A program made the translations under genes and the position numbers. Below the pieces are notes generated by a model, which was not told the origin of the DNA, ran no database searches, and was given only the letters and a program-made list of their open reading frames with translations. Of a stretch of 64,000 nt of DNA, positions 781 to 19,519 are shown piece after piece. Positions within the stretch are counted from its first letter, which is position 1. Every line of letters begins with the position of its first letter. This DNA comes from Escherichia coli (GTDB lineage Bacteria > Pseudomonadota > Gammaproteobacteria > Enterobacterales > Enterobacteriaceae): assembly GCF_003334315.1 (NCBI RefSeq), contig NZ_QOWR01000009.1. One strand, 5' to 3'.

Positions 781-811
781 TTCTAAATGCAATTAAAATC
801 AGGTTGCCAAA

Positions 812-1093
812 TTAATCGTAGCGATTTAACACGATTCGACGTTTGCTATCGCTACCTGCAACAACCACTTCTGTCGTTACACCTTTGACGGGCGAAGAAA
901 ACAGATGACGGGTGTCAACATTATACGTTAACTGACCACAATGCTGTTGAGGTTGACCATTAACCATAGCCATACTGCATGTTGGGGGACTGATCCTGCC
1001 ATTAATCGCTAATGTGGCAGTCTCTGAAGAGAATGCGGGAGAAGCCAATCCATAGGCAAGAAAAATAATTCCTGACAGCCAATACTTATTCAT
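812..1093 (-). CDS. yehE: Small secreted protein YehE-like (93 aa)
   Basis: ORF track 812..1093 (-), 93 aa, N-terminal signal peptide; position between fimbrial gene and apbC matches E. coli yehE. Confidence 0.75.
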   Translation of the reverse strand: MNKYWLSGIIFLAYGLASPAFSSETATLAINGRISPPTCSMAMVNGQPQQHCGQLTYNVDTRHLFSSPVKGVTTEVVVAGSDSKRRIVLNRYD

Positions 1094-1282
1094 TGAACGT
1101 TATCCCTGTAGTAAAGGTTATGCCTGGATAGAATGAGTGCATAACAAACTATAGCTGTACATCCACTACACAGCCACGAAGGATGATAATGAAGCATTGC
1201 CTGTATGATCAATCGACTTTGTAGAGTTTCGGACGAAGGTCCGCAGAATATTCGCAGTATTAAATAAGTGTTCATTAATGCG

Positions 1283-1325
1283 GCAAAAACTAATACACCG
1301 CATCAATGTAACATCTCTGCGGTGT
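1283..1325 (-). terminator. Putative terminator downstream of apbC
   Basis: 7-bp inverted repeat acaccgc ... gcggtgt (1295-1301 / 1319-1325) followed on minus strand by T-rich tract; long loop so only moderate. Confidence 0.35.
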
Positions 1326-1355
1326 ATGAAGAATAACCAGAATGGTTAATAGGCG

Positions 1356-2465
1356 TTAGACCGCGCGGAAGGAAATCTCGCCTGGAATGACTTCACCCTG
1401 CCAGTAGAGCTGAGCTGCAACGCGGTCAGCCAGCTGGCGGTAGATAGCGGTAAATTCGCTCTCCGGACGGCTGATAACCGTTGGCGTACCTTTATCGAGA
1501 TCCTCACGTAAGGAGATGTGTAACGGCATCTGCCCCAGCAGCTGTGTATGGTATTTTTCAGCCAGTTTCTCTGCACCACCGGTACCGAAAATCGGTTCAT
1601 GGTGACCACAGTTACTGCAAATATGCACACTCATGTTCTCGACAATACCGAGCACCGGAACCTCGACTTTCTCGAACATCACAATGCCTTTTTTCGCATC
1701 GATCAGCGCGATGTCCTGCGGGGTGGTGACCACGACTGCACCGGTTACTGGAATGTTTTGCGCCAGCGTCAATTGAATGTCACCGGTGCCTGGCGGCATA
1801 TCAAGCACCAGATAGTCGAGATCCGGCCACAAGGTTTCCTGCAACATCTGCATTAACGCCTTGCTCGCCATCGGTCCACGCCACACCATCGCATTGTCGT
1901 CAGTGACCAGATAACCAATTGAATTGGTTGCCAGGCCATGAGACATAATCGGTGCCATATGGGTACCGTCCGGCGAAGTTGGACGCTGATTTTCTGCGCC
2001 CAACATTGTTGGGATTGATGGGCCGTAGATATCGGCGTCCAGAATGCCGACTTTCGCCCCTTCTGCCGCCAGCGCCAGTGCCAGGTTTACCGCCGTGGAC
2101 GATTTACCCACGCCGCCTTTACCGGAACTCACCGCGATAATGTTCTTCACACCGTTAATTCCCGGCTGATTCTTCACGCGTTTCAGAGTGGCTATGTTAT
2201 ACGACAGTTTCCAGTCGATAGCTTTCGCCCCGGTGATGCGCAGCAGTTCGGCGCTACATTGCTCTTTTAACTCTTCGAACGCGCTATGCCAGACAAACGG
2301 CATAACCAGTTCCACATGCAACGTGTCGTCCATCCAGGCGACATGGTGCAACGCTTTCAGCGTGGTGAGGTTATGCTTCAGGGTTGGGTGCTGAAAATTG
2401 GCCAGTGTCCCGGCGACCATTGCGCGCAAGGCTTCTGGTGATTTGGCCTGGGATTGTTCGTTCAT
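1356..2465 (-). CDS. apbC: Fe-S cluster carrier ATPase ApbC/Mrp (369 aa)
   Basis: ORF 1356..2495 (-) trimmed to internal Met giving MNEQSQAKSPEALRAMV...; P-loop motif SGKGGVGKS; divergent from metG as in E. coli. Confidence 0.93.
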   Translation of the reverse strand: MNEQSQAKSPEALRAMVAGTLANFQHPTLKHNLTTLKALHHVAWMDDTLHVELVMPFVWHSAFEELKEQCSAELLRITGAKAIDWKLSYNIATLKRVKNQPGINGVKNIIAVSSGKGGVGKSSTAVNLALALAAEGAKVGILDADIYGPSIPTMLGAENQRPTSPDGTHMAPIMSHGLATNSIGYLVTDDNAMVWRGPMASKALMQMLQETLWPDLDYLVLDMPPGTGDIQLTLAQNIPVTGAVVVTTPQDIALIDAKKGIVMFEKVEVPVLGIVENMSVHICSNCGHHEPIFGTGGAEKLAEKYHTQLLGQMPLHISLREDLDKGTPTVISRPESEFTAIYRQLADRVAAQLYWQGEVIPGEISFRAV

Positions 2466-2596
2466 CCCGACTCCTTTTTTGTATAGATAAACCATCAGCT
2501 GATAGTTTACCTGAAGAATATAGAGAAGTACTTACTTAACATTTTCCCATTTGGTACTATCTAACCCCTTTTCACTATTAAGAAGTAATGCCTACT

Positions 2597-4630
2597 ATGA
2601 CTCAAGTCGCGAAGAAAATTCTGGTGACGTGCGCACTGCCGTACGCTAACGGCTCAATCCACCTCGGCCATATGCTGGAGCACATCCAGGCTGATGTCTG
2701 GGTCCGTTACCAGCGAATGCGCGGCCACGAGGTCAACTTCATCTGCGCCGACGATGCCCACGGTACACCGATCATGCTGAAAGCTCAGCAGCTTGGTATC
2801 ACCCCGGAGCAGATGATTGGCGAAATGAGTCAGGAGCATCAGACTGATTTCGCAGGCTTTAACATCAGCTATGACAACTATCACTCGACGCACAGCGAAG
2901 AGAACCGCCAGTTGTCAGAACTTATCTACTCTCGCCTGAAAGAGAACGGTTTTATTAAAAACCGCACCATCTCTCAGCTGTACGATCCGGAAAAAGGCAT
3001 GTTCCTGCCGGACCGTTTTGTGAAAGGCACCTGCCCGAAATGTAAATCCCCGGATCAATACGGCGATAACTGCGAAGTCTGCGGCGCGACCTACAGCCCG
3101 ACTGAATTGATCGAGCCGAAATCGGTGGTTTCTGGCGCTACGCCGGTAATGCGTGATTCTGAACACTTCTTCTTTGATCTGCCCTCTTTCAGCGAAATGT
3201 TGCAGGCATGGACCCGCAGCGGTGCGTTGCAGGAGCAGGTGGCAAATAAAATGCAGGAGTGGTTTGAATCCGGCCTGCAACAGTGGGATATCTCCCGCGA
3301 CGCGCCATACTTTGGTTTTGAAATTCCGAACGCGCCGGGCAAATATTTCTACGTCTGGCTGGACGCACCGATTGGCTACATGGGTTCTTTCAAGAATCTG
3401 TGCGACAAGCGCGGCGACAGCGTAAGCTTCGATGAATACTGGAAGAAAGACTCCACCGCCGAACTGTACCACTTCATCGGTAAAGATATCGTTTACTTCC
3501 ACAGCCTGTTCTGGCCTGCCATGCTGGAAGGCAGCAACTTCCGCAAGCCGACCAACCTGTTTGTTCATGGCTATGTGACGGTGAACGGCGCGAAGATGTC
3601 CAAGTCTCGCGGCACCTTTATTAAAGCCAGCACCTGGCTGAATCATTTTGACGCTGACAGCCTGCGTTACTACTACACTGCGAAACTCTCTTCGCGCATT
3701 GATGATATCGATCTCAACCTGGAGGATTTCGTTCAGCGCGTGAATGCCGATATCGTTAACAAAGTGGTTAACCTGGCCTCCCGTAACGCGGGCTTTATCA
3801 ACAAACGTTTTGACGGCGTGCTGGCAAACGAACTGGCTGACCCGCAGTTGTACAAAACCTTCACTGATGCCGCTGAAGTGATTGGTGAAGCGTGGGAAAG
3901 CCGTGAATTTGGTAAAGCTGTGCGCGAAATCATGGCGCTGGCTGATCTGGCTAACCGCTATGTCGATGAACAGGCTCCGTGGGTAGTCGCAAAACAGGAA
4001 GGTCGCGATGCTGACCTGCAGGCGATTTGCTCAATGGGCATCAACCTGTTCCGCGTGCTGATGACTTACCTGAAGCCGGTACTGCCGAAACTGACCGAGC
4101 GTGCAGAAGCCTTCCTCAATACGGAACTGACCTGGGATGGTATCCAGCAACCGCTGCTGGGCCACAAAGTGAATCCGTTCAAGGCGCTGTATAACCGCAT
4201 CGATATGAAACAGGTTGAAGCTCTGGTGGAAGCCTCTAAAGAAGAAGTGAAAGCAGCTGCCGCGCCAGTTACTGGCCCACTGGCAGATGATCCGATTCAG
4301 GAAACCATCACCTTTGACGACTTCGCCAAAGTTGACCTGCGCGTAGCGCTGATCGAAAACGCAGAGTTTGTTGAAGGTTCTGACAAACTGCTGCGCCTGA
4401 CACTGGATCTCGGCGGTGAAAAACGCAATGTCTTCTCCGGTATTCGTTCTGCCTACCCGGATCCGCAGGCACTGATTGGTCGTCACACCATTATGGTGGC
4501 TAACCTGGCACCACGTAAAATGCGCTTTGGAATCTCCGAAGGCATGGTGATGGCTGCCGGTCCAGGCGGGAAAGATATCTTCCTGCTAAGCCCGGATGCT
4601 GGTGCTAAACCGGGTCATCAGGTGAAATAA
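2597..4630 (+). CDS. metG: Methionyl-tRNA synthetase (677 aa)
   Basis: ORF 2588..4630 trimmed to [29 protein letters not shown] (HIGH-type motif HLGH), KMSKS motif present (AKMSKSRG). Confidence 0.97.
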
Positions 4631-4639
4631 TCCCCCTTC

Positions 4640-4670
4640 AAGGCGCTGCATCGACAGCGCCTTTTCTTTA
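4640..4670 (+). terminator. Intrinsic terminator after metG
   Basis: Hairpin aaggcgctg-catcga-cagcgcctt at 4640-4663 followed by ttttcttt. Confidence 0.65.
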
Positions 4671-4770
4671 TAAATTCCTAAAGTTGTTTTCTTGCGATTT
4701 TGTCTCTCTCTAACCCGCATAAATACTGGTAGCATCTGCATTCAACTGGATAAAATTACAGGGATGCAGA

Positions 4771-7700
4771 ATGAGACACTTTATCTATCAGGACGAAAAA
4801 TCACATAAATTCTGGGCGGTGGAGCAACAGGGAAACGAGTTGCATATCAGTTGGGGAAAAGTTGGCACCAAAGGGCAAAGTCAGATAAAAAGTTTTTCAG
4901 ATGCTGCGGCAGCGGAAAAAGCGGAACTTAAGCTGATTGCGGAGAAGGTGAAGAAGGGGTATGTGGAGCAAGCGAAGGATAATTCTTTGCAACCTTCCCA
5001 AACGGTAACGGGCTCTCTCAAGGTAGCGGACTTATCCACCATTATTCAGGAACAACCCTCTTTCGTAGCAGAAACCCGTGCGCCTGACAAAAATACAGAT
5101 GCTGTTTTACCGTGGCTGGCGAAAGATATTGCTGTCGTTTTTCCGCCCGAAGTTGTACACACCACGTTAAGTCATCGCCGCTTTCCCGGAGTTCCTGTTC
5201 AGCAAGCAGACAAATTGACCCAATTACGTCGCTTAGCCTGTAGTGTGTCGCAACGGGATAATAAAACAGCCACATTTGACTTCAGCGCCTGTTCTTTAGA
5301 ATGGCAAAACACCGTCGCCCAGGCGATCAGTCAGATCGACGGCCTGAAAACAACACAGTTACCATCACCAGTAATGGCTGTACTCACGGCACTTGAAATG
5401 AAATGCACAAGATATAAAGTGCGTGAGGATGTTATGGATCAGATCGTCCAGGAAGGCGGTCTGGAATATGCTACTGATGTAATAATACACCTTCAACAGA
5501 TTGATATTGAATGGGATTATGCGAATAATGTCATTATTATTCTGCCGTCTGGCATTGCACCTAGCTACTTGGAGCAATATTCCAGATTTGAATTACGCCT
5601 ACGTAAACATTTATCACTGACGGAAGAGTCTCTCTGGCAAAAATGTGCACAAAAACTTATTGCCGCAATTCCACATATTCCAGAATGGCGGCAACCATTA
5701 ATTGCTTTGTTATTACCCGAAAAACCAGAAATTGCACATGAAATTGCCCAGCGTCTACTGGGGCAAAAAAAATTACCCTCGCTTGAGTGGTTAAAAATAG
5801 TGGCGACTGATGAGCACATTCTTGCCTCATTAGAAAAATATCACGAACCATATGCCATTTTTGATGATTACTATTGTGGTGCGATATGGTCAGCCACCGT
5901 ATTACAGGAGCAAGGTGTTGCAGCCCTGCCCCGATTTGCTCCCTATGCCGCAAGTGACTACTGCGCCGATGTGTTGCGTCATATCAATCATCCGTTCGCA
6001 TTGACACTGCTTATACGTGTAGCCGGGCAAACTAAACGCTGTCACGATCGGATGACGAAAGCCATTGCTGCGTTCCCACATGCAGCAATGGCGGCACTGA
6101 CGGAACTTCTTGGGCAAAAAGAAGAGAACAGTTGGCGCATTATGCTAATGACAATGCTTATCTCACAACCAGCACTGGCAGAACAGGTCATTCCCTGGCT
6201 CTCGACACCCGCAGTTGCCGTACTGAAATCATGCCAGCAACAACTGACACAGCCCTCAAACCATGCCAGCGCCGATCTACTGCCAGCCGTAGTAGTCTCC
6301 CCTCCCTGGCTTTCGAAAAAGAAAAAATCGCCGATTCCGGTGCTGGATTTAGCGCCATTAGGCATTGAGCCAATCTGTTATCTGACAGAAGAAATCAGTA
6401 ATCAACTTTTGGCGAAATATATCTGGTATTCAAAACACATCACGGTTAGCCATGAAGAAAGTACTACCAACCTGTTGGCAAGGATGGGTTTTCAACGACG
6501 GATCGCTGGTACATATATTAAAGCTCCCGAAGCGGTAGTTGAGGCATGGCTAAATGAAGATTATTCAACCTTACTAAGTGAATTTAAGGTGTTTCATTCA
6601 CCTACCGGGCATTATTGGCAGTTGGGGATTTTGACAACATTGCCGCTGGAGAAAGCAGTAAAAGCATGGAATGCCCTTACCCTATCTCCACATACCGATA
6701 CCGAATACTCCATGTTACATTTTGGACTCAAAGGGTTACCTGGGTTAGTAAACTCACTTGCACGCTATCCACAAGAAGCCTTGCCCATCACGAATTACTT
6801 CGCAGCGAGTGAGCTGGCTCCTGCCGTCGCCCGTGCCTTCAACAAACTGAAAACGCTACGCGAAAACGCCCGTAGCTGGCTGTTGAAATACCCGGAACAT
6901 GCCCTTACCGGCCTGCTGCCTGCGGCGCTCGGCAAAGCCGGTGAAGCACAGGATAACGCCCGCGCTGCCTTGCGTATGCTTACCGAAAACGGTCATCAGC
7001 CATTACTGCAAGAAATCGCCCGACGTTATAACCAGCCGGAAGTAACCGATGCGGTGAACGCTCTGCTTGCGCTCGATCCCTTAGATAATCACCCGACAAA
7101 AATCCCCACTCTTCCGGCCTTTTATCAGCCATCGCTCTGGACGCGCCCGGTATTAAAAGCAAATGCCCAATCACTGCCAGATAGCGCCCTCCTCCACCTC
7201 GGTGAAATGCTCCGCTTCCCTCAGGAAGAGGCTCTGTATCCGGGATTATTGCAGGTGAAAGACGTCTGTTCCGCCGACTCACTGGCGGGATTTGCCTGGG
7301 ATCTGTTTACCGCCTGGCAGACCGCTGGCGCGCCGTCGAAAGAGAGTTGGGCGTTCACTGCGTTAGGCGTTCTCGGTAACGATGACACCGCCCGCAAACT
7401 GACGCCATTAATACGCGCCTGGCCTGGTGAATCCCAGCATAAACGCGCCACCGTTGGGTTGGATATTCTCGCTGCTATCGGTAGTGATATCGCCCTTATG
7501 CAGCTTAACGGCATCGCCCAGAAACTGAAATTCAAAGCATTACAGGAGCGGGCAAAAGAAAAAATTGCCGACATTGCCGAGAGCCGCGAACTCACGGTGG
7601 CGGAGCTTGAAGATCGGTTAGCACCGGATCTCGGTCTGGATGATAACGGTTCGCTGCTGCTGGATTTTGGCCCACGGCAGTTCACCGTCAGCTTTGATGA

Positions 7701-8565
7701 AACCTTAAAACCGTTTGTGCGTGATGTTTCCGGCAGCCGCCTGAAGGACCTGCCCAAACCGAACAAAAGCGATGATGAAACGCGGGCGAACGATGCGGTT
7801 AACCGCTACAAATTGCTGAAAAAAGATGCGCGTACCATCGCCGCCCAGCAGGTAGCAAGGCTGGAATCCGCCATGTGCCTGCGCCGCCGCTGGTCGCTGG
7901 AAAACTTCCAGCTCTTCCTGGTTGAGCATCCGCTGGTTCGTCACTTAACCCGCCGTCTGATTTGGGGCGTTTATAGCGCCGAAAACCAGCTACTGGCTTG
8001 CTTTCGCGTAGCAGAAGATAACAGCTCCAGCACCGCTGACGATGATCTTTTCACCCTGCCGGAAGGCGATATCTCTATCGGCACTCCTCACGTTCTGGAA
8101 ATATCACCAACGGATGCTGCCGCCTTTGGTCAGCTTTTTGCCGACTACGAACTGCTACCACCGTTCCGCCAGCTCGACCGTAACAGCTACGCCCTGACAG
8201 AAGCCGAGCGCAATGCCAGTGAACTGACCCGCTGGGCAGGCAGAAAATGCCCGAGTGGTCGGGTCATGGGGCTGGCGAATAAAGGCTGGATAAAGGGCGA
8301 ACCACAGGATGGAGGCTGGATCGGATGGATGATCAAACCTTTGGGTCGCTGGTCGTTAATCATGGAAATCGATGAAGGCTTTGCGGTAGGCATGTCGCCA
8401 GCCGAACTCAGCGCTGAGCAGCTCTTAAGCAAGCTGTGGCTATGGGAAGGCAAAGCAGAAAGATATGGCTGGGGGAGTAATTCAACACAGGAAGCGCAGT
8501 TCTCCGTAATCGATGCCATCACCGCCAGCGAGCTAATTAACGATATTGAAGCCCTGTTTGAATAA
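4771..8565 (+). CDS. yehH: Large MolR-like protein with N-terminal WGR domain (1264 aa), intact
   Basis: Single uninterrupted ORF; N-terminus MRHFIYQDEKSHKFWAVEQQGNELHISWGKVGTKGQ shows the W-G-K/R signature of WGR domains; remainder paralogous to downstream YehI. Confidence 0.85.
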   Translation: MRHFIYQDEKSHKFWAVEQQGNELHISWGKVGTKGQSQIKSFSDAAAAEKAELKLIAEKVKKGYVEQAKDNSLQPSQTVTGSLKVADLSTIIQEQPSFVAETRAPDKNTDAVLPWLAKDIAVVFPPEVVHTTLSHRRFPGVPVQQADKLTQLRRLACSVSQRDNKTATFDFSACSLEWQNTVAQAISQIDGLKTTQLPSPVMAVLTALEMKCTRYKVREDVMDQIVQEGGLEYATDVIIHLQQIDIEWDYANNVIIILPSGIAPSYLEQYSRFELRLRKHLSLTEESLWQKCAQKLIAAIPHIPEWRQPLIALLLPEKPEIAHEIAQRLLGQKKLPSLEWLKIVATDEHILASLEKYHEPYAIFDDYYCGAIWSATVLQEQGVAALPRFAPYAASDYCADVLRHINHPFALTLLIRVAGQTKRCHDRMTKAIAAFPHAAMAALTELLGQKEENSWRIMLMTMLISQPALAEQVIPWLSTPAVAVLKSCQQQLTQPSNHASADLLPAVVVSPPWLSKKKKSPIPVLDLAPLGIEPICYLTEEISNQLLAKYIWYSKHITVSHEESTTNLLARMGFQRRIAGTYIKAPEAVVEAWLNEDYSTLLSEFKVFHSPTGHYWQLGILTTLPLEKAVKAWNALTLSPHTDTEYSMLHFGLKGLPGLVNSLARYPQEALPITNYFAASELAPAVARAFNKLKTLRENARSWLLKYPEHALTGLLPAALGKAGEAQDNARAALRMLTENGHQPLLQEIARRYNQPEVTDAVNALLALDPLDNHPTKIPTLPAFYQPSLWTRPVLKANAQSLPDSALLHLGEMLRFPQEEALYPGLLQVKDVCSADSLAGFAWDLFTAWQTAGAPSKESWAFTALGVLGNDDTARKLTPLIRAWPGESQHKRATVGLDILAAIGSDIALMQLNGIAQKLKFKALQERAKEKIADIAESRELTVAELEDRLAPDLGLDDNGSLLLDFGPRQFTVSFDETLKPFVRDVSGSRLKDLPKPNKSDDETRANDAVNRYKLLKKDARTIAAQQVARLESAMCLRRRWSLENFQLFLVEHPLVRHLTRRLIWGVYSAENQLLACFRVAEDNSSSTADDDLFTLPEGDISIGTPHVLEISPTDAAAFGQLFADYELLPPFRQLDRNSYALTEAERNASELTRWAGRKCPSGRVMGLANKGWIKGEPQDGGWIGWMIKPLGRWSLIMEIDEGFAVGMSPAELSAEQLLSKLWLWEGKAERYGWGSNSTQEAQFSVIDAITASELINDIEALFE

Positions 8566-8574
8566 GGAAAGAGC

Positions 8575-11500
8575 ATGGACAAGGAATTACCGTGGCTGGC
8601 GGATAACGCCCAACTGGAACTGAAATATAAAAAAGGCAAAACGCCGCTCAGTCATCGTCGCTGGCCGGGCGAACCAGTGTCCGTTATCACTGGAAGTCTC
8701 ATCCAGACATTGGGTGATGAATTGCTACAAAAAGCTGAGAAGAAAAAAAACATTGTCTGGCGTTATGAGAATTTTTCACTGGAGTGGCAGTCCGCCATCA
8801 CGCAGGCCATCAACTTGATCGGCGAACACAAACCCTCAATCCCGGACCGGACAATGGCGGCGCTAGCCTGTATCGCGCAAAATGACAGCCAACAGTTGCT
8901 CGACGAAATCGTCCAACAAGAGGGGCTGGAATATGCGACTGAGGTGGTGATTGCACGCCAGTTTATTGCGCGGTGTTATGAGAGTGATCCTCTGGTAGTG
9001 ACATTGCAGTATCAGGACGAGGATTATGGCTATGGTTATCGCTCAGAAACCTATAACGAATTCGATCTCCGACTGCGTAAGCATCTCTCTCTGGCAGAGG
9101 AAAGCTGCTGGCAGCGTTGCGCCGACAAACTCATTGCCGCACTACCAGGAATAACCAAAGTTCGCCGCCCTTTTATTGCGCTGATCCTCCCGGAAAAACC
9201 AGAAATAGCCAATGAGTTGGTAGGCCTTGAATGCCCGCGAACTCATTTTCATTCTAAGGAGTGGTTAAAAGTTGTTGCTAATGACCCCACAGCGGTGAGA
9301 AAACTCGAACACTACTGGAGCCAGGATATATTTAGCGATCGAGAAGCCAGCTACATGTCGCATGAAAACCACTTCGGCTACGCGGCCTGCGCCGCCCTTT
9401 TGCGCGAACAAGGACTGGCAGCCATTCCGCGCCTCGCGATGTATGCCCATAAAGAAGATTGCGGCAGTCTGCTGGTACAAATTAACCATCCGCAAGTCAT
9501 CCGCACCTTGCTACTGGTGGCTGATAAAAACAAACCCAGCCTGCAACGTGTAGCTAAATACCATAAAAACTTCCCCCATGCGACGCTCGCCGCACTGGCA
9601 GAACTGCTGGCGTTAACAGAACCACCAGCCCGCCCTGGTTATCCAATCATCGAAGACAAAAAGCTGCCTGCACAGCAAAAAGCACGCGATGAATACTGGC
9701 GTACGCTGTTACAAACGCTGATGGCATCGCAGCCACAACTGGCAGCAGAAGTGATGCCGTGGTTAAGTACTCAACCCCAGTCAGTGCTGAAGAGTTATTT
9801 ATCGGCACCGCCCAAACCGGTTATTGATGGCACCGATAACAGCAATCTGCCAGAAATCCTCGTTTCACCACCGTGGCGTAGTAAGAAAAAAATGACAGCT
9901 CCACGTCTTGATTTGGCACCGCTCGAATTAACTCCGCAAGTTTACTGGCAACCAGGCGAACAAGAGAGGCTTGCCGCCACTGAGCCTGCCCGTTATTTCA
10001 GCACGGAATCTCTTGCGCAACGCATGGAACAAAAAAGTGGACGAGTTGTATTACAGGAACTGGGTTTTGGGGATGATGTATGGCTGTTTCTGAATTATAT
10101 ACTCCCCGGAAAACTGGATGCTGCACGCAATTCACTCTTTGTTCAGTGGCATTACTACCAGGGGCGGGTTGAAGAGATCCTGAATGGCTGGAACTCCCCG
10201 GAAGCACAATTAGCAGAACAGGCGCTCCGCAGCGGTCACATAGAAGCGTTAATTAACATATGGGAAAATGACAACTACTCACATTATCGTCCGGAAAAGA
10301 GTGTCTGGAACCTGTATTTATTGGCACAGTTGCCGCGTGAGATGGCTTTGACCTTCTGGCTGCGTATCAATGAGAAAAAGCATCTGTTCGCGGGTGAGGA
10401 CTATTTTCTCAGTATCCTCGGATTGGATGCGCTACCAGGTCTGCTGTTGGCTTTTTCACATCGTCCAAAAGAAACATTTCCGTTAATTTTAAATTTTGGC
10501 GCAACAGAACTGGCGCTGCCTGTTGCCCACGTCTGGCGACGTTTCGCGGCGCAGCGTGATCTGGCTCGCCAGTGGATTTTACAATGGCCGGAACATACGG
10601 CTAGTGCACTTATCCCTCTTGTCTTTACCAAACCCAGCGATAATAGCGAAGCCGCATTACTTGCCCTGCGTTTACTGTACGAACAGGGACATGGCGAATT
10701 GCTACAAACCGTGGCAAACCGCTGGCAGCGTACAGATGTATGGTCTGCCCTGGAGCAGTTGCTTAAACAGGGTCCAATGGACATTTACCCGGCACGCATT
10801 CCAAAAGCCCCTGATTTCTGGCATCCGCAAATGTGGTCCAGGCCGCGCCTTATCACTAATAATCAAACTGTTACCAATGACGCTCTGGAAATTATCGGCG
10901 AAATGCTGCGCTTTACCCAGGGGGGACGTTTTTATAGCGGGCTGGAACAACTGAAAACGTTCTGCCAGCCACAAACGCTGACAGCTTTTGCCTGGGATCT
11001 CTTCACTGCGTGGCAACAAGCTGGTGCCCCCGCAAAAGACAACTGGGCATTTCTGGCGTTAAGTCTCTTTGGTGACGAAAGCACGGCACGGGATCTGACG
11101 ACACAGATCCTCGCCTGGCCACAAGAAGGCAAATCTGCCCGTGCTGTCAGCGGCCTGAACATCCTTACCCTGATGAATAATGATATGGCGCTGATACAGC
11201 TGCATCATATATCGCAACGGGCTAAATCCCGCCCCTTACGTGATAACGCGGCGGAATTTCTTCAGGTGGTCGCAGAAAATCGCGGGCTAAGCCAGGAAGA
11301 GCTAGCGGACAGATTAGTCCCAACCCTGGGCCTTGATGATCCGCAGGCGTTGAGTTTTGATTTTGGTCCCCGGCAGTTTACCGTTCGCTTCGATGAAAAT
11401 CTCAACCCGGTTATCTTTGATCAGCAAAACGTTCGCCAGAAAAGCGTTCCCCGTTTGCGCGCCGATGACGATCAACTGAAAGCGCCCGAGGCACTGGCCC

Positions 11501-12207
11501 GACTAAAAGGGCTAAAAAAAGATGCTACTCAGGTGAGCAAAAACCTGCTCCCGCGTCTTGAAACGGCCCTACGTACCACCCGACGCTGGTCGCTGGCAGA
11601 TTTTCATTCTCTGTTTGTTAATCATCCCTTTACCCGTCTGGTTACCCAGCGATTAATATGGGGGGTTTATCCGGCAAATGAACCGCGTTGTTTACTCAAA
11701 GCCTTTCGTGTGGCCGCAGAGGGGGAGTTCTGCAATGCGCAAGATGAGCCAATTGACCTGCCTGCGGACGCTCTGATTGGCATTGCCCACCCGTTAGAAA
11801 TGACAGCAGAAATGCGCAGTGAATTTGCACAGCTTTTTGCCGATTACGAAATTATGCCGCCTTTTCGCCAGTTGTCGCGCCGCACGGTGCTGCTCACACC
11901 TGACGAGTCAACCAGTAACAGCCTGACTCGCTGGGAAGGTAAATCCGCTACCGTTGGGCAACTTATGGGAATGCGATACAAAGGCTGGGAGTCAGGCTAT
12001 GAGGACGCATTTGTCTATAACCTGGGTGAGTACCGGCTGGTCCTTAAGTTTTCACCCGGTTTTAACCACTACAATGTTGATAGCAAAGCGCTAATGAGCT
12101 TCCGTTCTCTTCGAGTGTACCGTGACAATAAATCCGTCACTTTTGCCGAACTTGATGTGTTTGATTTGAGTGAGGCGTTAAGCGCACCTGACGTCATTTT
12201 CCATTAA
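8575..12207 (+). CDS. yehI: Large uncharacterised protein YehI (1210 aa), paralogue of YehH lacking the WGR N-terminus
   Basis: ORF 8575..12207, 1210 aa; extensive colinear similarity with YehH (e.g. DLRLRKHLSLAEES..., SPPWRSKKK, FAWDLFTAWQQAGAP, FDFGPRQFTV, FAQLFADYEIMPPFRQL). Confidence 0.85.
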   Translation: MDKELPWLADNAQLELKYKKGKTPLSHRRWPGEPVSVITGSLIQTLGDELLQKAEKKKNIVWRYENFSLEWQSAITQAINLIGEHKPSIPDRTMAALACIAQNDSQQLLDEIVQQEGLEYATEVVIARQFIARCYESDPLVVTLQYQDEDYGYGYRSETYNEFDLRLRKHLSLAEESCWQRCADKLIAALPGITKVRRPFIALILPEKPEIANELVGLECPRTHFHSKEWLKVVANDPTAVRKLEHYWSQDIFSDREASYMSHENHFGYAACAALLREQGLAAIPRLAMYAHKEDCGSLLVQINHPQVIRTLLLVADKNKPSLQRVAKYHKNFPHATLAALAELLALTEPPARPGYPIIEDKKLPAQQKARDEYWRTLLQTLMASQPQLAAEVMPWLSTQPQSVLKSYLSAPPKPVIDGTDNSNLPEILVSPPWRSKKKMTAPRLDLAPLELTPQVYWQPGEQERLAATEPARYFSTESLAQRMEQKSGRVVLQELGFGDDVWLFLNYILPGKLDAARNSLFVQWHYYQGRVEEILNGWNSPEAQLAEQALRSGHIEALINIWENDNYSHYRPEKSVWNLYLLAQLPREMALTFWLRINEKKHLFAGEDYFLSILGLDALPGLLLAFSHRPKETFPLILNFGATELALPVAHVWRRFAAQRDLARQWILQWPEHTASALIPLVFTKPSDNSEAALLALRLLYEQGHGELLQTVANRWQRTDVWSALEQLLKQGPMDIYPARIPKAPDFWHPQMWSRPRLITNNQTVTNDALEIIGEMLRFTQGGRFYSGLEQLKTFCQPQTLTAFAWDLFTAWQQAGAPAKDNWAFLALSLFGDESTARDLTTQILAWPQEGKSARAVSGLNILTLMNNDMALIQLHHISQRAKSRPLRDNAAEFLQVVAENRGLSQEELADRLVPTLGLDDPQALSFDFGPRQFTVRFDENLNPVIFDQQNVRQKSVPRLRADDDQLKAPEALARLKGLKKDATQVSKNLLPRLETALRTTRRWSLADFHSLFVNHPFTRLVTQRLIWGVYPANEPRCLLKAFRVAAEGEFCNAQDEPIDLPADALIGIAHPLEMTAEMRSEFAQLFADYEIMPPFRQLSRRTVLLTPDESTSNSLTRWEGKSATVGQLMGMRYKGWESGYEDAFVYNLGEYRLVLKFSPGFNHYNVDSKALMSFRSLRVYRDNKSVTFAELDVFDLSEALSAPDVIFH

Positions 12208-12267
12208 AACACAGCGGGCAGTGATGCAACTGCCCGTTATCAACACGACTTACCAGCGGGGAAAGCG

Positions 12268-12585
12268 ATGATCGTGCAAAAAGAGCTGGTTGCTATTTAC
12301 GATTATGAGGTCCCTGTACCTGAAGATCCGTTTTCCTTCAGACTTGAGATCCATAAATGCTCTGAATTATTTACAGGTTCCGTCTATCGACTGGAGCGAT
12401 TCCGGCTACGTCCAACATTTCATCAACGTGATCGAGAAGATGCTGACCCGCTAATAAATGATGCGTTGATTTATATAAGAGATGAGTGTATTGATGAGCG
12501 GAAATTACGAGGTGAATCACCTGAAACTGTAATAGCAATTTTTAATCGTGAACTACAGAATATATTCAACCAAGAAATAGAATAA
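12268..12585 (+). CDS. yehK: Small uncharacterised protein YehK (105 aa)
   Basis: ORF 12268..12585 preceded by RBS-like gggaaagcg; AT-richer than flanking genes. Confidence 0.65.
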   Translation: MIVQKELVAIYDYEVPVPEDPFSFRLEIHKCSELFTGSVYRLERFRLRPTFHQRDREDADPLINDALIYIRDECIDERKLRGESPETVIAIFNRELQNIFNQEIE

Positions 12586-12662
12586 TATACTCTAAATAAT
12601 TCAAATTGGTCCGATCCGGCGCACCGTCCCAATGGCCTGGATTATAAATCTCATTATCTTAA

Positions 12663-12691
12663 TTGCAACGGGGTCCAGCCGTGGTTATAAT
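12663..12691 (+). promoter_or_regulatory. Near-consensus sigma70-type promoter (TTGCAA - 17 bp - TATAAT)
   Basis: -35 ttgcaa 12663-12668, 17-bp spacer, perfect -10 tataat 12686-12691. Confidence 0.4.
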
Positions 12692-12756
12692 TCGTTCGTT
12701 GGAACACGATGTTGCACAGGCTGTGGTGTTAGGCCTGAAAATAGTAAATAAAAGAA

Positions 12757-12781
12757 CCTGCCTCACCAGCAGGTTTTTTTA
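12757..12781 (+). terminator. Intrinsic terminator in yehK-yehL intergenic region
   Basis: Stem cctgc / gcagg with loop ctcacca (12757-12773) followed by 8 T (12774-12781). Confidence 0.5.
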
Positions 12782-12891
12782 TTTACTGTGATCTGCTTTC
12801 CAGATATTTTTCGCTCAAACAACTAATGCGCCAAACATTTATTGCGCGTAAAATATCGTTTATTTCATTAATACATTTCAGGGATGAATAT

Positions 12892-13979
12892 ATGTCACCG
12901 CAGAATAATCATCTGCAGCGTCCGCCTGCTGCTGTGTTATACGCCGATGAACTGGCAAAATTAAAACAAAATGATAACGCACCTTGCCCGCCCGGTTGGC
13001 AGTTAAGTTTGCCTGCGGCCCGTGCTTTTATCCTTGGCGACGAAGCGCAAAATATCAGCCGTAAAGTGGTGATTAGCCCCTCCGCTGTCGAACGTATGTT
13101 AGTCACTCTTGCTACCGGCCGCGGTTTGATGTTGGTGGGGGAACCGGGTACCGCAAAATCTCTTCTTTCTGAATTACTGGCAACCGCTATTAGCGGCGAT
13201 GCCGGGTTAACCATCCAGGGCGGGGCATCTACCACCGAAGATCAAATCAAGTATGGCTGGAACTACGCCCTGCTTATCAATCATGGTCCGTCAACGGAAG
13301 CGCTGGTCCCTGCCCCGCTTTATCAGGGAATGCGCGACGGCAAAATCGTCCGTTTCGAAGAGATAACGCGTACACCGCTGGAAGTGCAGGACTGTCTGTT
13401 AGGTATGCTTTCTGACAGGGTGATGACGGTGCCGGAACTCACTGGTGAAGCCAGTCAGCTCTATGCGCGAGAAGGCTTTAATATTATTGCCACTGCCAAT
13501 ACCCGCGATCGCGGCGTCAATGAAATGAGTGCTGCGCTAAAGCGTCGCTTCGATTTTGAAACGGTTTTTCCGATTATGGATTTCGCCCAGGAGTTGGAAC
13601 TGGTCGCCAGTGCTTCGGCGCGTTTGCTGGCCCATAGCGGTATTCCGCATAAAGTGCCTGACGCGGTACTGGAATTACTGGTCCGCACCTTCCGCGATCT
13701 GCGTGCCAACGGCGAAAAGAAAACGTCAATGGATACACTGACAGCGATTATGTCCACCGCTGAAGCCGTGAACGTGCCCATGCTGTGGGCGTCCGCGCCT
13801 GGTTTTTAGCGAATCGCGCGGGGGAGCCTGCCGACCTGGTGGAATGTATTGCCGGAACCATCGTCAAAGATAACGAAGAAGATCGCGCGCGTCTGCGCCG
13901 TTACTTCGAACAGCGTGTCGCCACACATAAAGAAGCTCACTGGCAGGCTTATTATCAAGCCCGCCACCGCCTGCCGTGA
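12892..13979 (+). pseudogene. yehL: MoxR-type AAA+ ATPase YehL, disrupted by apparent 1-nt deletion (frame A ends at TAG 13807-13809; remainder continues in -1 frame to 13979)
   Basis: ORF 12826..13809 trimmed to MSPQNNH at 12892; Walker A LVGEPGTAKS (~13138-13161). The -1 frame is open from 13764 to TGA 13977-13979; joined length equals 362 codons, matching my recollection of K-12 YehL. T5 run at 13803-13807 is the likely indel site. Confidence 0.6.
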
Positions 13980-13989
13980 GGAAAGATGC

Positions 13990-16269
13990 ATGAGCGAGCC
14001 GTTAATTGTCGGCATCCGGCATCATAGTCCGGCCTGCGCCCGGCTGGTGAAATCGTTAATCGAAAGCCAGCGGCCACGATACGTGTTGATTGAAGGCCCG
14101 GCTGATTTTAATGACCGGGTAGACGAACTGTTTTTAGCCCACCAGCTTCCGGTAGCTATTTACAGTTATTGCCAGTATCAGGACGGTGCAGCCCCCGGGC
14201 GTGGTGCCTGGACGCCATTTGCTGAATTTTCGCCGGAGTGGCAGGCGCTACAAGCCGCACGTCGCATTCAGGCACAAACTTACTTCATCGATTTGCCTTG
14301 CTGGGCGCAGAGTGAAGAAGAGGACGATTCGCCTGATACGCAAGATGAAAGCCAGGCCTTACTGCTGCGTGCCACCCGCATGGATAACAGCGATACCCTG
14401 TGGGATCACTTGTTCGAAGATGAAAGCCAGCAAACTGCATTACCCTCTGCGCTGGCGCACTATTTTGCCCAACTGCGGGGCGACGCCTCCGGCGATGCGC
14501 TCAATCGTCAGCGCGAAGCCTTTATGGCCCGCTGGATTGGATGGGCGATGCAGCAAAATAATGGCGACGTGTTAGTTGTCTGCGGTGGCTGGCACGCTCC
14601 GGCACTGGCAAAGATGTGGCGCGAATGCCCTCAGAAAATTAACAAGCCAGAATTGCCCTCGCTGGCAGATGCCGTTACAGGTTGTTATCTCACACCCTAC
14701 AGTGAAAAGCGCCTTGATGTGCTGGCAGGATACCTTTCAGGAATGCCTGCCCCGGTATGGCAAAACTGGTGCTGGCAGTGGGGCTTGCAGAAGGCCGGTG
14801 AACAACTGCTAAAAACTATCCTTACCCGTTTGCGCCAGCACAAATTGCCCGCTTCTACCGCGGATATGGCTGCCGCTCATCTGCATGCGATGGCGCTGGC
14901 ACAGTTGCGCGGTCATACACTACCGTTACGCACTGACTGGCTGGATGCCATAGCAGGCTCGCTGATTAAAGAAGCCCTGAACGCGCCGTTGCCGTGGAGC
15001 TATCGCGGCGTTATTCATCCCGATACCGATCCGATTCTGCTAACGTTGATAGACACATTAGCGGGTGACGGATTCGGTAAACTTGCCCCTTCTACGCCAC
15101 AACCGCCTCTGCCAAAAGATGTCACCTGCGAACTGGAACGTACCGCAATCTCCCTTCCGGCGGAGCTTACCTTAAATCGCTTTACCCCCGATGGGCTGGC
15201 GCAAAGTCAGGTGTTACATCGGCTGGCAATACTGGAGATCCCTGGGATTGTACGCCAGCAGGGAAGTACACTGACACTTGCAGGCAACGGTGAAGAACGC
15301 TGGAAATTAACCCGCCCGCTTAGCCAGCATGCGGCATTGATTGAGGCCGCCTGTTTTGGTGCCACACTCTAGGAAGCCGCACGCAATAAATTAGAAGCCG
15401 ATATGCTGGACGCGGGCGGAATCGGCAGTATCACCACATGTCTTAGCCAGGAGGCGTTAGCGGGTCTGGCGTCCTTCAGTCAACAATTACTGGAGCAACT
15501 CACACTATTAATCGCCCAGGAAAATCAATTTGCCGAAATGGGCCAGGCGCTGGAAGTGCTTTATGCCTTATGGCGGCTGGATGAAATTAGCGGTATGCAA
15601 GGCGCGCAGATATTACAAACGACGTTATGCGCGACTATCGATCGCACGCTGTGGCTGTGTGAATCTAACGGCAGACCGGATGAAAAGGAGTTTCACGCTC
15701 ACCTGCATAGCTGGCAAGCGCTTTGCCATATTCTGCGCGATCTACATAGCGGCGTTAATTTACCCGGCGTTTCTCTTTCTGCGGCGGTAGCCTTACTGGA
15801 GCGACGCAGTCAGGCAATTCATGCCCCGGCGCTGGATCGCGGCGCGGCTCTTGGCGCACTAATGCGTCTGGAACATCCCAACGCCAGTGCCGAAGCGGCG
15901 CTGACGATGCTGGCGCAGTTATCCCCGGCACAATCTGGTGAGGCGCTGCACGGTTTGCTGGCGCTGGCCCGCCATCAACTGGCCTGTCAGCCGGCATTTA
16001 TCGCCGGTTTCAGCAGTCATTTAAATCAACTGAGTGAAGCCGATTTTATTAACGCCCTGCCCGATTTACGCGCGGCGATGGCCTGGCTACCACCACGAGA
16101 ACGCGGGACGCTGGCGCATCAGGTGCTTGAGCATTATCAACTGGCGCAACTTCCCGTTTCGGCGCTGCAAATGCCGTTGCATTGTCCACCACAGGCCATT
16201 GCACATCATCAACAACTCGAACAGCAGGCACTGGCATCGCTGCAAAACTGGGGAGTTTTCCATGTCTGA
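13990..16269 (+). pseudogene. yehM: Large uncharacterised protein YehM with in-frame amber codon (TAG 15370-15372); two ORF halves 13990..15372 and 15373..16269 in the same frame
   Basis: ORFs 13849..15372 and 15403..16269 are in the same reading frame separated only by TAG; read-through length 759 codons equals my recollection of K-12 YehM. Start at MSEPLIVGIRHHSP (13990). Confidence 0.6.
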
Positions 16270-17398
16270 ACTGAACGATCTTCTGACCACCCGTGAGCTA
16301 CAACGCTGGCGATTAATTCTTGGCGAAGCGGCAGAAACGACGCTTTGTGGGCTGGATGACAACGCCCGGCAGATAGACCACGCGCTGGAGTGGCTGTATG
16401 GGCGCGATCCTGAACGGCTCCAGCGTGGTGAACGTTCCGGTGGATTAGGTGGCTCAAATCTCACCACCCCTGAGTGGATCAACAGTATTCACACGCTGTT
16501 TCCGCAGCAGGTGATTGAGCGGCTGGAAAGCGATGCCGTGCTGCGCTACGGCATTGAAGATGTGGTGACGAATCTCGACGTGCTGGAACGTATGCAGCCT
16601 TCTGAAAGCCTGCTACGCGCTGTTTTGCACACCAAACATCTGATGAACCCCGAAGTACTGGCTGCCGCCCGCCGGATAGTGTGCCAGGTTGTTGAAGAAA
16701 TTATGGCTCGACTGGCAAAGGAAGTTCGTCAGGCTTTTTCTGGTGTCCGCGATCGCCGTCGCCGTTCATTTATTCCACTGGCGCGAAACTTTGATTTCAA
16801 AAGTACTCTGCGCGCCAACCTGCAACACTGGCACCCGCAACACGGCAAGTTGTATATCGAATCCCCCCGCTTTAACAGCCGCATTAAACGCCAAAGCGAA
16901 CAATGGCAACTGGTCTTACTGGTTGATCAAAGCGGATCGATGGTCGATTCGGTGATCCACTCTGCGGTGATGGCGGCCTGTTTGTGGCAGTTACCCGGCA
17001 TTCGTACCCATCTGGTGGCGTTTGACACAAGCGTCGTTGATCTCACGGCAGACGTTGCCGATCCGGTAGAGTTATTAATGAAAGTACAGTTGGGCGGCGG
17101 GACCAATATCGCCAGTGCCGTGGAGTATGGTCGGCAACTTATTGAACAACCAGCGAAAAGCGTCATTATCCTCGTGAGCGATTTTTACGAAGGGGGTTCA
17201 TCATCATTACTGACGCATCAGGTGAAAAAGTGTGTCCAGAGCGGCATCAAAGTGCTGGGACTGGCAGCGCTCGATAGCACCGCAACACCTTGCTATGACC
17301 GCGATACGGCCCAGGCGCTGGTTAATGTCGGCGCACAAATAGCCGCCATGACGCCGGGCGAGCTGGCATCATGGCTTGCGGAGAATCTTCAGTCATGA
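16262..17398 (+). CDS. yehP: von Willebrand factor A (vWA) domain protein YehP (378 aa)
   Basis: ORF trimmed to MSELNDLLTTRELQRW at 16262 (ATG 8 nt upstream of the yehM stop); MIDAS-like motif DQSGS (~16925-16939). Confidence 0.88.
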   Translation: MSELNDLLTTRELQRWRLILGEAAETTLCGLDDNARQIDHALEWLYGRDPERLQRGERSGGLGGSNLTTPEWINSIHTLFPQQVIERLESDAVLRYGIEDVVTNLDVLERMQPSESLLRAVLHTKHLMNPEVLAAARRIVCQVVEEIMARLAKEVRQAFSGVRDRRRRSFIPLARNFDFKSTLRANLQHWHPQHGKLYIESPRFNSRIKRQSEQWQLVLLVDQSGSMVDSVIHSAVMAACLWQLPGIRTHLVAFDTSVVDLTADVADPVELLMKVQLGGGTNIASAVEYGRQLIEQPAKSVIILVSDFYEGGSSSLLTHQVKKCVQSGIKVLGLAALDSTATPCYDRDTAQALVNVGAQIAAMTPGELASWLAENLQS

Positions 17399-19395
17399 AT
17401 TCACTACGTCCGGAATTATTAGAACTGACACCGCAGGCCCTGACGGCGTTAAGCAATGCCGGTTTTGTTAAGCGCAGTCTTAAGGAACTGGAAAATGGCA
17501 ACGTCCCGGAGATCAGCCATGAGAACGACGCTTTAATCGCCACCTTCAGTGACGGTGTCCGTACCCAGCTGGCGAACGGCCAGGCACTGAAAGAGGCTCA
17601 GTGCAGTTGCGGGGCCAACGGTATGTGCCGTCATCGCGTGATGCTGGTGTTAAGTTATCAACGACTTTGTGCCACCACTCAGTCTACGGAAAAAGAAGAA
17701 GAGTGGGATCCGGCAATCTGGCTGGAAGAACTGGCTACCCTTCCCGATGCTACCCGCAAACGCGCACAGGCGCTGGTCGCTAAAGGCATCACCATTGAGT
17801 TGTTCTGTGCGCCGGGTGAAATTCCCTCTGCCCGCTTACCGATGAGCGATGTGCGTTTTTATTCCCGCAGCAGTATTCGTTTCGCCCGTTGTGATTGTAT
17901 TGAAGGCACACTTTGCGAACATGTCGTACTGGCGGTACAGGCCTTCGTCGAGGCCAAAGCGCAGCAAGCAGAATTTAACCATTTAATCTGGCAGATGCGC
18001 AGCGAACACGTCACATCATCTGACGATCCGTTTGCCAGCGAAGAAGGCAACGCGTGTCGTCAATATGTTCAGCAATTAAGCCAGACATTATGGCTTGGCG
18101 GCATCAGCCAGCCGCTCATCCATTACGAGGCAGCATTCAACCGCGCATTGCAGGCGGCAGAGACCTGCAACTGGCGCTGGGTGAGTGAATCGCTACGGCA
18201 ACTGCGCGCCAGCGTTGATGCCTTCCACGCCCGCGCCAGCCACTATAATGCCGGAGAATGCTTACATCAGCTTGCGGCATTAAACAGTCGATTAAATTGC
18301 GCACAAGAGATGGCCCGGCGCGACAGTATTGGTGAAGTTCCTCCTGTGCCGTGGCGCACGGTCGTTGGCTCTGGCATTGCCGGAGAAGCAAAGCTTGATC
18401 ATCTGCGGCTGGTGTCTTTAGGTATGCGTTGCTGGCAGGATATTGAGCATTATGGTTTACGCATCTGGTTTACCGATCCCGACACCGGCAGTATTTTGCA
18501 CCTTTCGCGCAGTTGGCCGCGAAGTGAACAGGAAAACTCACCGGCAGCTACGCGTCGGCTGTTTAGTTTTCAGGCTGGCGCACTGGCGGGCGGGCAAATT
18601 GTTTCACAAGCAGCAAAACGCAGTGCCGATGGCGAGCTGCTGTTAGCTACCCGCAACCGCTTAAGCAGCGTTGTGCCGCTGTCGCCTGATGCCTGGCAAA
18701 TGTTGAGCGCGCCGTTACGCCAGCCGGGCATTGTGGCTTTGCGGGAATATTTACGCCAGCGTCCCCCCGCCTGCATACGGCCTCTTAATCAGGTCGATAA
18801 CTTATTTATTCTGCCGGTCGCTGAGTGTATTTCGCTCGGTTGGGACAGCAGCCGCCAGACGCTGGATGCGCAGGTCATTAGCGGCGAAGGGGAAGATAAT
18901 GTGCTGACGTTATCATTACCAGCCTCAGCCAGCGCACCTTATGCCGTTGAACGCATGGCGGTGCTTTTGCAACAAACAGACGACCCCGTGTGTCTGGTTT
19001 CTGGCTTTGTCAGTTTTGTTGAAGGGCAATTGACACTGGAACCACGGGTGATGATGACAAAAACCCGTGCCTGGGCGCTGGACGCAGAAACTACGCCTGT
19101 GGCACCGCTACCTTCTGCCAGCGTTTTGCCTGTGCCGTCTACTGCTCATCAGTTGCTGATACGCTGCCAGGCGTTACTTATTCAACTGCTCCATAACGGC
19201 TGGCGCTATCAGGAACAGAGTGCTATTGGTCAGGCAGAGTTGCTGGCGAATGACCTCACCGCGGTGGGTTTTTATCGGCTGGCACATGTGTTGGGACAAT
19301 TTCGTAATACAGAAAGCGAGGCACGGGTAGAAGCAATGAATAACGGTGTTTTGCTTTGCGAACAATTATTCCCCATGCTTCAGCAACAAGGATGA
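17395..19395 (+). CDS. yehQ: SWIM zinc-finger protein YehQ
   Basis: ORF trimmed to MNSLRPELLEL at 17395 (ATGA overlap with yehP stop); two CxCx5CxH motifs: CSCGANGMCRH and CDCIEGTLCEH. Confidence 0.85.
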   Translation: MNSLRPELLELTPQALTALSNAGFVKRSLKELENGNVPEISHENDALIATFSDGVRTQLANGQALKEAQCSCGANGMCRHRVMLVLSYQRLCATTQSTEKEEEWDPAIWLEELATLPDATRKRAQALVAKGITIELFCAPGEIPSARLPMSDVRFYSRSSIRFARCDCIEGTLCEHVVLAVQAFVEAKAQQAEFNHLIWQMRSEHVTSSDDPFASEEGNACRQYVQQLSQTLWLGGISQPLIHYEAAFNRALQAAETCNWRWVSESLRQLRASVDAFHARASHYNAGECLHQLAALNSRLNCAQEMARRDSIGEVPPVPWRTVVGSGIAGEAKLDHLRLVSLGMRCWQDIEHYGLRIWFTDPDTGSILHLSRSWPRSEQENSPAATRRLFSFQAGALAGGQIVSQAAKRSADGELLLATRNRLSSVVPLSPDAWQMLSAPLRQPGIVALREYLRQRPPACIRPLNQVDNLFILPVAECISLGWDSSRQTLDAQVISGEGEDNVLTLSLPASASAPYAVERMAVLLQQTDDPVCLVSGFVSFVEGQLTLEPRVMMTKTRAWALDAETTPVAPLPSASVLPVPSTAHQLLIRCQALLIQLLHNGWRYQEQSAIGQAELLANDLTAVGFYRLAHVLGQFRNTESEARVEAMNNGVLLCEQLFPMLQQQG

Positions 19396-19519
19396 AATAG
19401 TGCTTTTTACTAAGAGTTCTACTCCAGTTCCGGACTGCTCACGCCACGGTATTAGGCATATCCTATATAGCCCCTGGTGAGAGTCACCAGTTCCTTGATT
19501 AAATAAAATGGAGTTTTAC

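Follow-up and report, generated by a model that had tools for sequence, protein, structure and literature searches.

Two SWIM-type Cys3-His modules in Escherichia coli YehQ and the MoxR-VWA gene set that surrounds them

Here, we describe yehQ of Escherichia coli and the genes around it in a 64,000-nt stretch of DNA (contig NZ_QOWR01000009.1 of assembly GCF_003334315.1), referred to below as “the window”. YehQ has two Cys3-His motifs near its N-terminus, and its gene lies downstream of genes for a MoxR-type AAA+ ATPase (yehL), a DUF5682 protein (yehM), and a von Willebrand factor A (VWA) protein (yehP). In K-12 NCM3722, the gene order is molR (a pseudogene), yehI, yehK, yehL, yehM, yehP, yehQ, yehR, yehS, btsR, btsS, and mlrA. 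The part of the window from 15000 to 20000 is matched in 5,425 of the 5,426 complete E. coli genomes, with identity of up to 99.9%, and the genes annotated under this match are yehM, yehP, yehQ, and yehR. The open frame of yehQ reaches upstream to an ATG at 17371. The RefSeq start, at 17395, is preferred because an alignment of homologues shows a conserved N-terminus of the form MxxxRxELLELT. The ATG at this position overlaps the stop codon of yehP (i.e., ATGA); because of this overlap, YehQ is most likely co-produced with the VWA protein YehP.

Both motifs lie in the yehQ reading frame, as a preliminary description of this DNA had stated. That description placed the first motif (CSCGANGMCRH) exactly, at 17602-17634; it recognized the second (CDCIEGTLCEH) but located it at 17889-17921, one base away from the actual 17890-17922. 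The two sites have the same ligand spacing, C-x-C-x5-C-x-H, and their first cysteines are 96 residues apart, close to the “about 90” given at the outset. The motifs are not chance occurrences. When YehQ was shuffled 20,000 times, the pattern C.C.{4,8}C.H was found once in 24 of the 20,000 shuffles and twice in none. In the six-frame translation of the window (~128,000 codons), the pattern C.C.{3,12}C.H matches only the two sites in YehQ.

The only family match at either site is Pfam PF04434 (SWIM). Searched with this profile, module 1 scores as SWIM, with an independent E-value (i-E) of 1.3e-3 (18.6 bits) in full-length YehQ, where the match spans residues 56-88, and of 2.9e-5 (23.9 bits) as an isolated segment. 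Module 2 scores weakly: its i-E is 0.21 (11.6 bits) when all of YehQ is searched and 6.1e-3 (16.5 bits) when the segment is searched alone. Across the family, 51 of 58 module 1 segments match the profile at E ≤ 0.1 and 26 of 58 at E ≤ 1e-3; for module 2, the corresponding counts are 22 of 57 and 1 of 57. Many YehQ homologues hold a precomputed PF04434 match. In a profile-profile comparison (hhalign) of the two sets of module segments, module 1 and module 2 align over 53 columns with their ligands in register (94.7%, E 6.4e-8). From this comparison, we conclude with high confidence that module 2 is a divergent duplicate of module 1, i.e., the product of an internal duplication. The Pfam matches, the homology between the modules, and a shared strand/loop/helix pattern in the predicted structure all agree with the preliminary description, which called the motifs SWIM-type, and we have high confidence that both are genuine SWIM-type zinc modules made by duplication. 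The label itself is already public: RefSeq names YehQ a “SWIM zinc finger family protein” and UniProt names the family “SWIM-type domain-containing protein”. The top matches listed from AFDB50 are labelled SWIM-type or uncharacterised, and include P33353 (“Protein YehQ”).

The ligands are strongly conserved. An exhaustive HMMER search of 1.84 billion representatives of 50% identity clusters found YehQ relatives in at least 869 clusters at E ≤ 1e-3 and in 261 at E ≤ 1e-30; in AFDB50, 800 clusters match at E ≤ 1e-3. For the family alignment, YehQ was combined with 117 full-length representatives (25-49% identity to YehQ, a range taken from the fuller alignment A2). Every one of the 117 rows that cover site 1 retains its four ligands, and those of site 2 are kept in 107-110 of 118 rows (about 91%). 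None of the other ten cysteines in YehQ is conserved in this alignment. Among 13 gammaproteobacterial orthologues, all eight ligand residues are invariant, down to 48% identity. The preliminary description had made its SWIM proposal depend on profile scores and on the cysteines being conserved among orthologues; with the ligands 91-100% conserved, the proposal stands.

Site 2 is the more variable of the two. In about ten representatives without it, all four or three of the four ligands are replaced, and the flanking sequence (VRFLVP...LAVWAFR) is retained. Loss of the ligands as a set, with the flanks retained, is the behavior expected of a structural metal site. A search with one such representative (P0265) returned many named relatives from Streptomyces, Micromonospora, Actinomadura, and related actinobacteria; of the 111 relatives considered, 72 have site 1 only, 39 have both sites, and none has neither.

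Two other features of the family concern the N-terminal region. One relative (P0147; 857 aa) has extra N-terminal copies of the SWIM-containing segment: its BLAST alignments to YehQ start at its residues 3 (YehQ residues 5-100), 127 (residues 5-184), and 226 (on through residues 5-567). These copies indicate that the SWIM module can undergo further duplication. The first 33 residues of YehQ (17395-17493), which are helical, are among the best conserved parts of the family, with R5, L8, L11, N21, G23, K26, and R27 each conserved at 92-99%. A partner protein could dock on this segment.

The structure of YehQ was predicted by AlphaFold2 with a 128-sequence alignment, and secondary structure was assigned by DSSP (Table 1). 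The model has a mean predicted local distance difference test score (pLDDT) of 94.3 and a predicted template modelling score (pTM) of 0.91; the high pTM indicates rigid packing between domains. A single-sequence prediction had a pLDDT of 40, was unusable, and was replaced by the alignment-based model. The predicted domain order is SWIM, helical linker, SWIM, helical domain, OB fold, OB fold, and four-helix bundle. In SWIM domains, strands are followed by a helix, with CxC at the end of a strand or in a loop and CxH at the start of the helix. Both modules of YehQ follow this arrangement in the model. In module 1, C70 ends the bridge at residues 69-70, C72 is in the loop, C78 directly precedes the helix at residues 79-93, and H80 is in its first turn. 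In module 2, C166 ends the strand at residues 164-166, C168 is in the loop, C174 directly precedes the helix at residues 175-190, and H176 is in its first turn.

The preliminary description saw a long C-terminal region “of no obvious motif”. Sequence families indeed detect none there, but the model shows a helical domain, in which G236, W262, R280, and R299 are invariant or near-invariant, followed by two OB folds of the same topology and a four-helix bundle. For the OB regions, Pfam searches gave no family other than SWIM for YehQ, and neither phmmer nor the family profile found a sequence relative in the PDB. By contrast in structure, a Foldseek search of the PDB ranks tandem OB-fold binders of single-stranded DNA (ssDNA) first, with RPA70 DBD-A/B (1jmc_A) matched at a probability of 0.99 and an E-value of 1.6e-3 over 238 columns. 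Further top matches are LEF-3, Teb1 AB, RPA, a HIN domain, POT1, and CST, and the alignments to two-OB proteins cover 224-266 columns. Conserved basic or aromatic residues are found in OB fold 1 (R338, R372, W374, and R409), in OB fold 2 (W483), and just after OB fold 1 (W434); with regard to binding of ssDNA or RNA, they are only suggestive. yehQ in the window differs from the allele of K-12 NCM3722 at one base only, with T in place of C at 18962; residue 523, in the helix of predicted OB fold 2, is thereby valine and not alanine.

Table 1. Coordinates of yehQ, its motifs and predicted domains, and the associated genes in the window
Feature	Position	Strand	Details
yehQ coding sequence	17395..19395	+	666 aa plus stop; from the list of open reading frames (ORFs), the translation, and RefSeq annotation of the identical K-12 locus
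Zinc-ligand motif 1, CSCGANGMCRH	17602..17634	+	aa 70-80; ligands C70, C72, C78, H80
Zinc-ligand motif 2, CDCIEGTLCEH	17890..17922	+	aa 166-176; ligands C166, C168, C174, H176
SWIM module 1	17500..17673	+	aa 36-93; DSSP strands (E) and helices (H): E39-43, E46-50, E56-60, bridge 69-70, H79-93
SWIM module 2	17788..17964	+	aa 132-190; E132-137, E145-147, E152-155, E164-166, H175-190
Helical domain	18040..18327	+	aa 216-311; H216-235, H242-257, H261-278, H286-311
Predicted OB fold 1	18385..18678	+	aa 331-428; barrel order b1-b2-b3-helix-b4-b5
Predicted OB fold 2	18802..19077	+	aa 470-561; E470-484, E489-495, E503-509, H517-526, E532-542, E545-555; same topology as OB fold 1
C-terminal four-helix bundle	19141..19389	+	aa 583-665
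yehP, VWA protein (CoxE-type)	16262..17398	+	metal ion-dependent adhesion site (MIDAS) DQSGS at aa 222-226; VWA_CoxE and VWA_2 on homologues
yehM (DUF5682)	13990..16269	+	nonsense codon in the window, CAG to TAG at 15370-15372 (Q461* of 759 codons)
yehL, MoxR-type AAA+ ATPase	12892..13979	+	P-loop GEPGTAKS; AAA_5 on homologues; frameshifted in the window
yehI	8575..12207	+	1210 aa; DUF4132 at aa 954-1138, no WGR
molR (yehH)	4771..8565	+	intact, 1264 aa; WGR at aa 6-69 (E 5e-18), DUF4132 at aa 988-1173; yehI paralogue

yehQ belongs to a MoxR-VWA operon, in agreement with the preliminary description, which linked YehQ to a MoxR-vWA module: yehL and yehP lie upstream of it, and the pairing of yehP with yehQ recurs elsewhere. 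YehL names one of seven MoxR subfamilies, and MoxR proteins are thought to be chaperone-like remodellers that have VWA partners (PMC3893208). Six genomic contexts were compared: E. coli, a locus whose SWIM protein has 48% identity to YehQ (L002), another with 26% identity and without site 2 (L005), and plasmids of Iodobacter, Allorhizobium, and Sinorhizobium. The sample is small, with alpha-, beta-, and gammaproteobacteria and metagenomes as its sources, and the comparison is qualitative. A five-gene set, consisting of genes for an AAA_5/MoxR ATPase (YehL), a DUF5682 protein, a VWA_CoxE protein, a SWIM protein, and a DUF4132 protein, is found together in all six contexts. The VWA gene directly precedes the SWIM gene in every case, and the position of the DUF4132 gene varies. 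No model for YehQ, YehM, YehI, or YehK was found in NCBIfam, and the anti-phage defence-system models of PADLOC-DB gave no match for YehQ, YehP, YehM, YehL, YehI, or YehK at E ≤ 0.01. Literature searches on yehQ, yehLMPQ, DUF4132/DUF5682, and SWIM with MoxR or VWA yielded no study of what YehQ or the yehLMPQ genes do; the mentions of yehQ were an entrapment-database match and a strain list.

One of the six contexts has a distinctive setting. On Iodobacter fluviatilis plasmid pl1 (L007), a mobilizable 77-kb plasmid, the five-gene set lies at 809-18213 between insertion sequences, with its SWIM gene broken into two ORFs. Its immediate neighbors are a type I restriction-modification system and a gene for a PDDEXK nuclease, a setting that resembles a defence island and is represented by this one case.

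Taking these observations together, we favor, as somewhat better than an even bet, an interpretation in which YehQ has two duplicated SWIM modules whose Cys3-His sites hold structural zinc, and in which it is the subunit that recognizes the target, or acts as an adaptor, in a YehL-YehM-YehP-YehQ-YehI/MolR machine. Each module would consist of a short sheet ending in CxC, a five-residue loop, and a CxH that caps the start of a helix, with one zinc ion, bound by the four ligands, fastening sheet and helix together. Both sites would be structural, stiffening the N-terminal third of a compact, multi-domain protein. With moderate confidence, we regard the SWIM modules as most likely being structural clamps in a rigid multi-domain protein. 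A cryo-electron microscopy structure of ZSWIM8 describes the zinc-binding SWIM domain as the “central organizer” of a protein superdomain (PMC13083262), which fits a structural role for the modules of YehQ.

In the same interpretation, YehQ would be the subunit that recognizes the target, with YehL (MoxR), YehM (DUF5682), YehP (VWA), and YehI/MolR (DUF4132) as its partners, and we infer that it forms a complex with YehP and YehL. As in other MoxR-VWA pairs, the VWA adaptor would transmit the remodelling force of the ATPase. Gene order, fold, and analogy with these pairs make it plausible that YehQ is the part of the YehL-YehP machine that recognizes targets or acts as an adaptor. As for what would be recognized, the two predicted OB folds suggest a single-stranded nucleic acid; a protein target is equally possible.

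The state of the genes in this strain has to be considered alongside the interpretation. Relative to K-12 NCM3722, yehL has a 1-nt deletion at 13776 (GTGGCCC to GTGCCC, with one G gone). Beyond about residue 294, the codons are read in another frame, which ends with a stop at 13809 (305 aa rather than 362); judged from its sequence, the MoxR ATPase gene looks inactivated in the window strain. yehP and yehQ are intact downstream of the nonsense codon in yehM. The part of the window from 13300 to 15600 has 100% identity in 0 of the 5,426 complete E. coli genomes. The difference runs the other way for molR, for which RefSeq records a frameshift and an internal stop in K-12 NCM3722; the two sequences differ by an indel of 1 nt at 7616 and by a base substitution at 7746.

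Signs of decay of the system are also seen in related strains. The E. coli and Shigella clusters of YehQ include forms of 416, 501, and 517 aa with hundreds of member sequences, as well as fusions of YehP with YehQ. In Shigella sonnei lineages 2 and 3, a deletion of ~7 kb that includes yehL and yehM is fixed (PMC12795559), and silencing by H-NS has been reported (PMC3686432). Together, the truncations, the S. sonnei deletion, and H-NS silencing suggest that the system is dispensable and decaying in these lineages. The YehP-YehQ fusions (P0007, P0068, P0070, and P0179) were not used as evidence; they probably reflect either read-through after a frameshift where the stop and start codons overlap or artefacts of assembly. 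Phage matches for YehQ were rejected as artefacts, one being chromosomal flank in the VT1-Sakai prophage record and another a 79-aa fragment.

Three points count against the favored interpretation. First, module 2 falls below the usual level of significance against the Pfam SWIM profile, both in the full-length protein (i-E 0.21) and as an isolated segment (6.1e-3). Second, no SWIM structure is among the top matches of the fold search, probably because the domain is small. Third, yehL and yehM are disrupted in the window and truncated YehQ is common in E. coli and Shigella, so the system may be inactive in this strain.

A tentative and rather unlikely reading goes further with regard to the target. 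YehQ could be the nucleic-acid sensor of a five-component MoxR-VWA machine found in Actinomycetota, Myxococcota, and Pseudomonadota, with the OB folds binding ssDNA or RNA, the SWIM fingers holding the shape of the protein, and YehQ working with MolR/YehI in a response to DNA damage or foreign DNA. The OB folds, the WGR domain of a partner protein, and a report that connects molR with the LexA regulon all point toward nucleic acid, each weakly. The leads for a sensor come from three sources: one paper says that molR has been described as a member of the LexA regulon (PMC8533742); in Deinococcus, depletion of DdrO, a repressor of the radiation response, strongly upregulates genes that encode a WGR protein and a DUF4132 protein; and the plasmid-borne gene set described above lies beside a type I restriction system. 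In the window, a LexA-box-like sequence, CTGGATAAAATTACAG, lies at 4746-4761, 10 bases before the ATG of molR; it departs from CTGT-N8-ACAG at one position, and its spacer is AT-rich. It is only a lead, because sites with one mismatch are not enriched in the window (15 found and 17.6 expected). A perfect CTGT-N8-ACAG was not found anywhere in the 64 kb.

We think it unlikely that the SWIM modules themselves contact DNA or RNA, with the OB folds and helical bundles serving protein-protein contacts. SWIM was reportedly first proposed, by Makarova et al. in 2002, to bind DNA or proteins. Basic residues flank the histidine of site 1 (C-R-H-R), with R79 conserved at 97% and R81 at 90%, and the partner MolR has a WGR domain, which has been called DNA-binding (PMC7824862). 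However, the neighbors of the ligands in module 2 are acidic rather than basic (C-D-C ... C-E-H), the resemblance to dedicated ssDNA binders is much closer for the OB folds, and the SWIM domain of ZSWIM8 organizes protein domains rather than binding nucleic acid.

Nor do we give much credence to the idea that the Cys3-His sites are working metal-handling sites. Here, the sites would pass metal to a client enzyme via MoxR-VWA, as in NorQ/NorD (iron, nitric oxide reductase), CoxD/CoxE (copper-molybdenum CO dehydrogenase), and CobS/CobT. YehP is in the CoxE-type VWA family PF05762, site 1 is never lost among relatives, and MoxR-VWA pairs are documented in cofactor insertion (PMC3893208 and PMC9976466). 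In addition, the neighboring gene molR was named for molybdate utilization, according to a reference cited in PMC7824862; since molR is a pseudogene in K-12, however, the old molybdate phenotype is doubtful. Against metal handling, no gene for a metalloenzyme or cofactor is conserved beside the five-gene set in the six contexts, and the only sequence-family match is SWIM, a structural finger. A large subgroup also does without site 2 as a metal site, with the sequence of the surrounding fold retained.

Lastly, that only the first motif is a true SWIM, and the second a chance or convergent CxCx5CxH in a beta-alpha unit, is highly improbable and close to refuted: the weak Pfam scores of module 2 are what one would cite for it, but the identical ligand spacing, the hhalign match between the modules, their shared secondary-structure register in the model, the conservation of all four site 2 ligands across phyla with loss only as a set, and the absence of double motifs among shuffled sequences all contradict it.

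The presence of SWIM motifs in YehQ is real, was mostly known from RefSeq and UniProt, and adds little by itself. What is new is that the second copy is divergent and has a zinc-free form in a subgroup, that OB folds are predicted, and that the VWA and SWIM genes are invariably paired; these details are useful but incremental. Their value is a sharper picture of a widespread gene set, in which YehQ has one zinc finger that is predicted to be indispensable, a duplicated second finger that has been made zinc-free in a large subgroup, and a pair of OB folds that look like those of ssDNA binders. For experimenters, this picture makes the one MoxR system of E. coli that is still uncharacterised approachable by way of cysteine mutants, the number of zinc ions (two versus one), binding of ssDNA or RNA, and YehP-YehQ pull-downs.

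YehQ can be compared with three groups of known systems. The first comprises the SWIM proteins (PF04434), which include MuDR transposases, SWI2/SNF2 ATPases, MEKK1, and the ZSWIM proteins. YehQ shares with them the CxCxnCxH ligand pattern, strands followed by a helix that starts with CxH, and, for module 1, the profile match; with ZSWIM8, its modules share a probable structural, organizing role. Unlike the eukaryotic SWIM proteins, YehQ has two copies, the second of which is divergent, below threshold, and without ligands in a subgroup. Its domain partners are OB folds and helical bundles, and its operon partners are MoxR, VWA, DUF5682, and DUF4132 proteins.

The second group comprises the OB-fold ssDNA binders, i.e., RPA70 DBD-A/B, Teb1 AB, POT1, CST/Stn1, baculovirus LEF-3, and bacterial SSB. 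The barrels predicted for YehQ share their topology and are structurally similar to them, but identity is only 7-14%, with no similarity detected at the sequence level, and whole-protein TM-scores are low. The barrels of YehQ are also set between zinc fingers and helical bundles, and any binding of nucleic acid by them is putative. The third group comprises the MoxR-VWA pairs RavA-ViaA, NorQ-NorD, CbbQ-CbbO, and CoxD-CoxE. As in these pairs, the gene for an AAA_5 ATPase (YehL) accompanies a gene for a VWA protein with an intact MIDAS (YehP). In contrast to them, YehL and YehP are accompanied by three extra large proteins (DUF5682, SWIM-OB, and DUF4132), and no client enzyme is encoded nearby.

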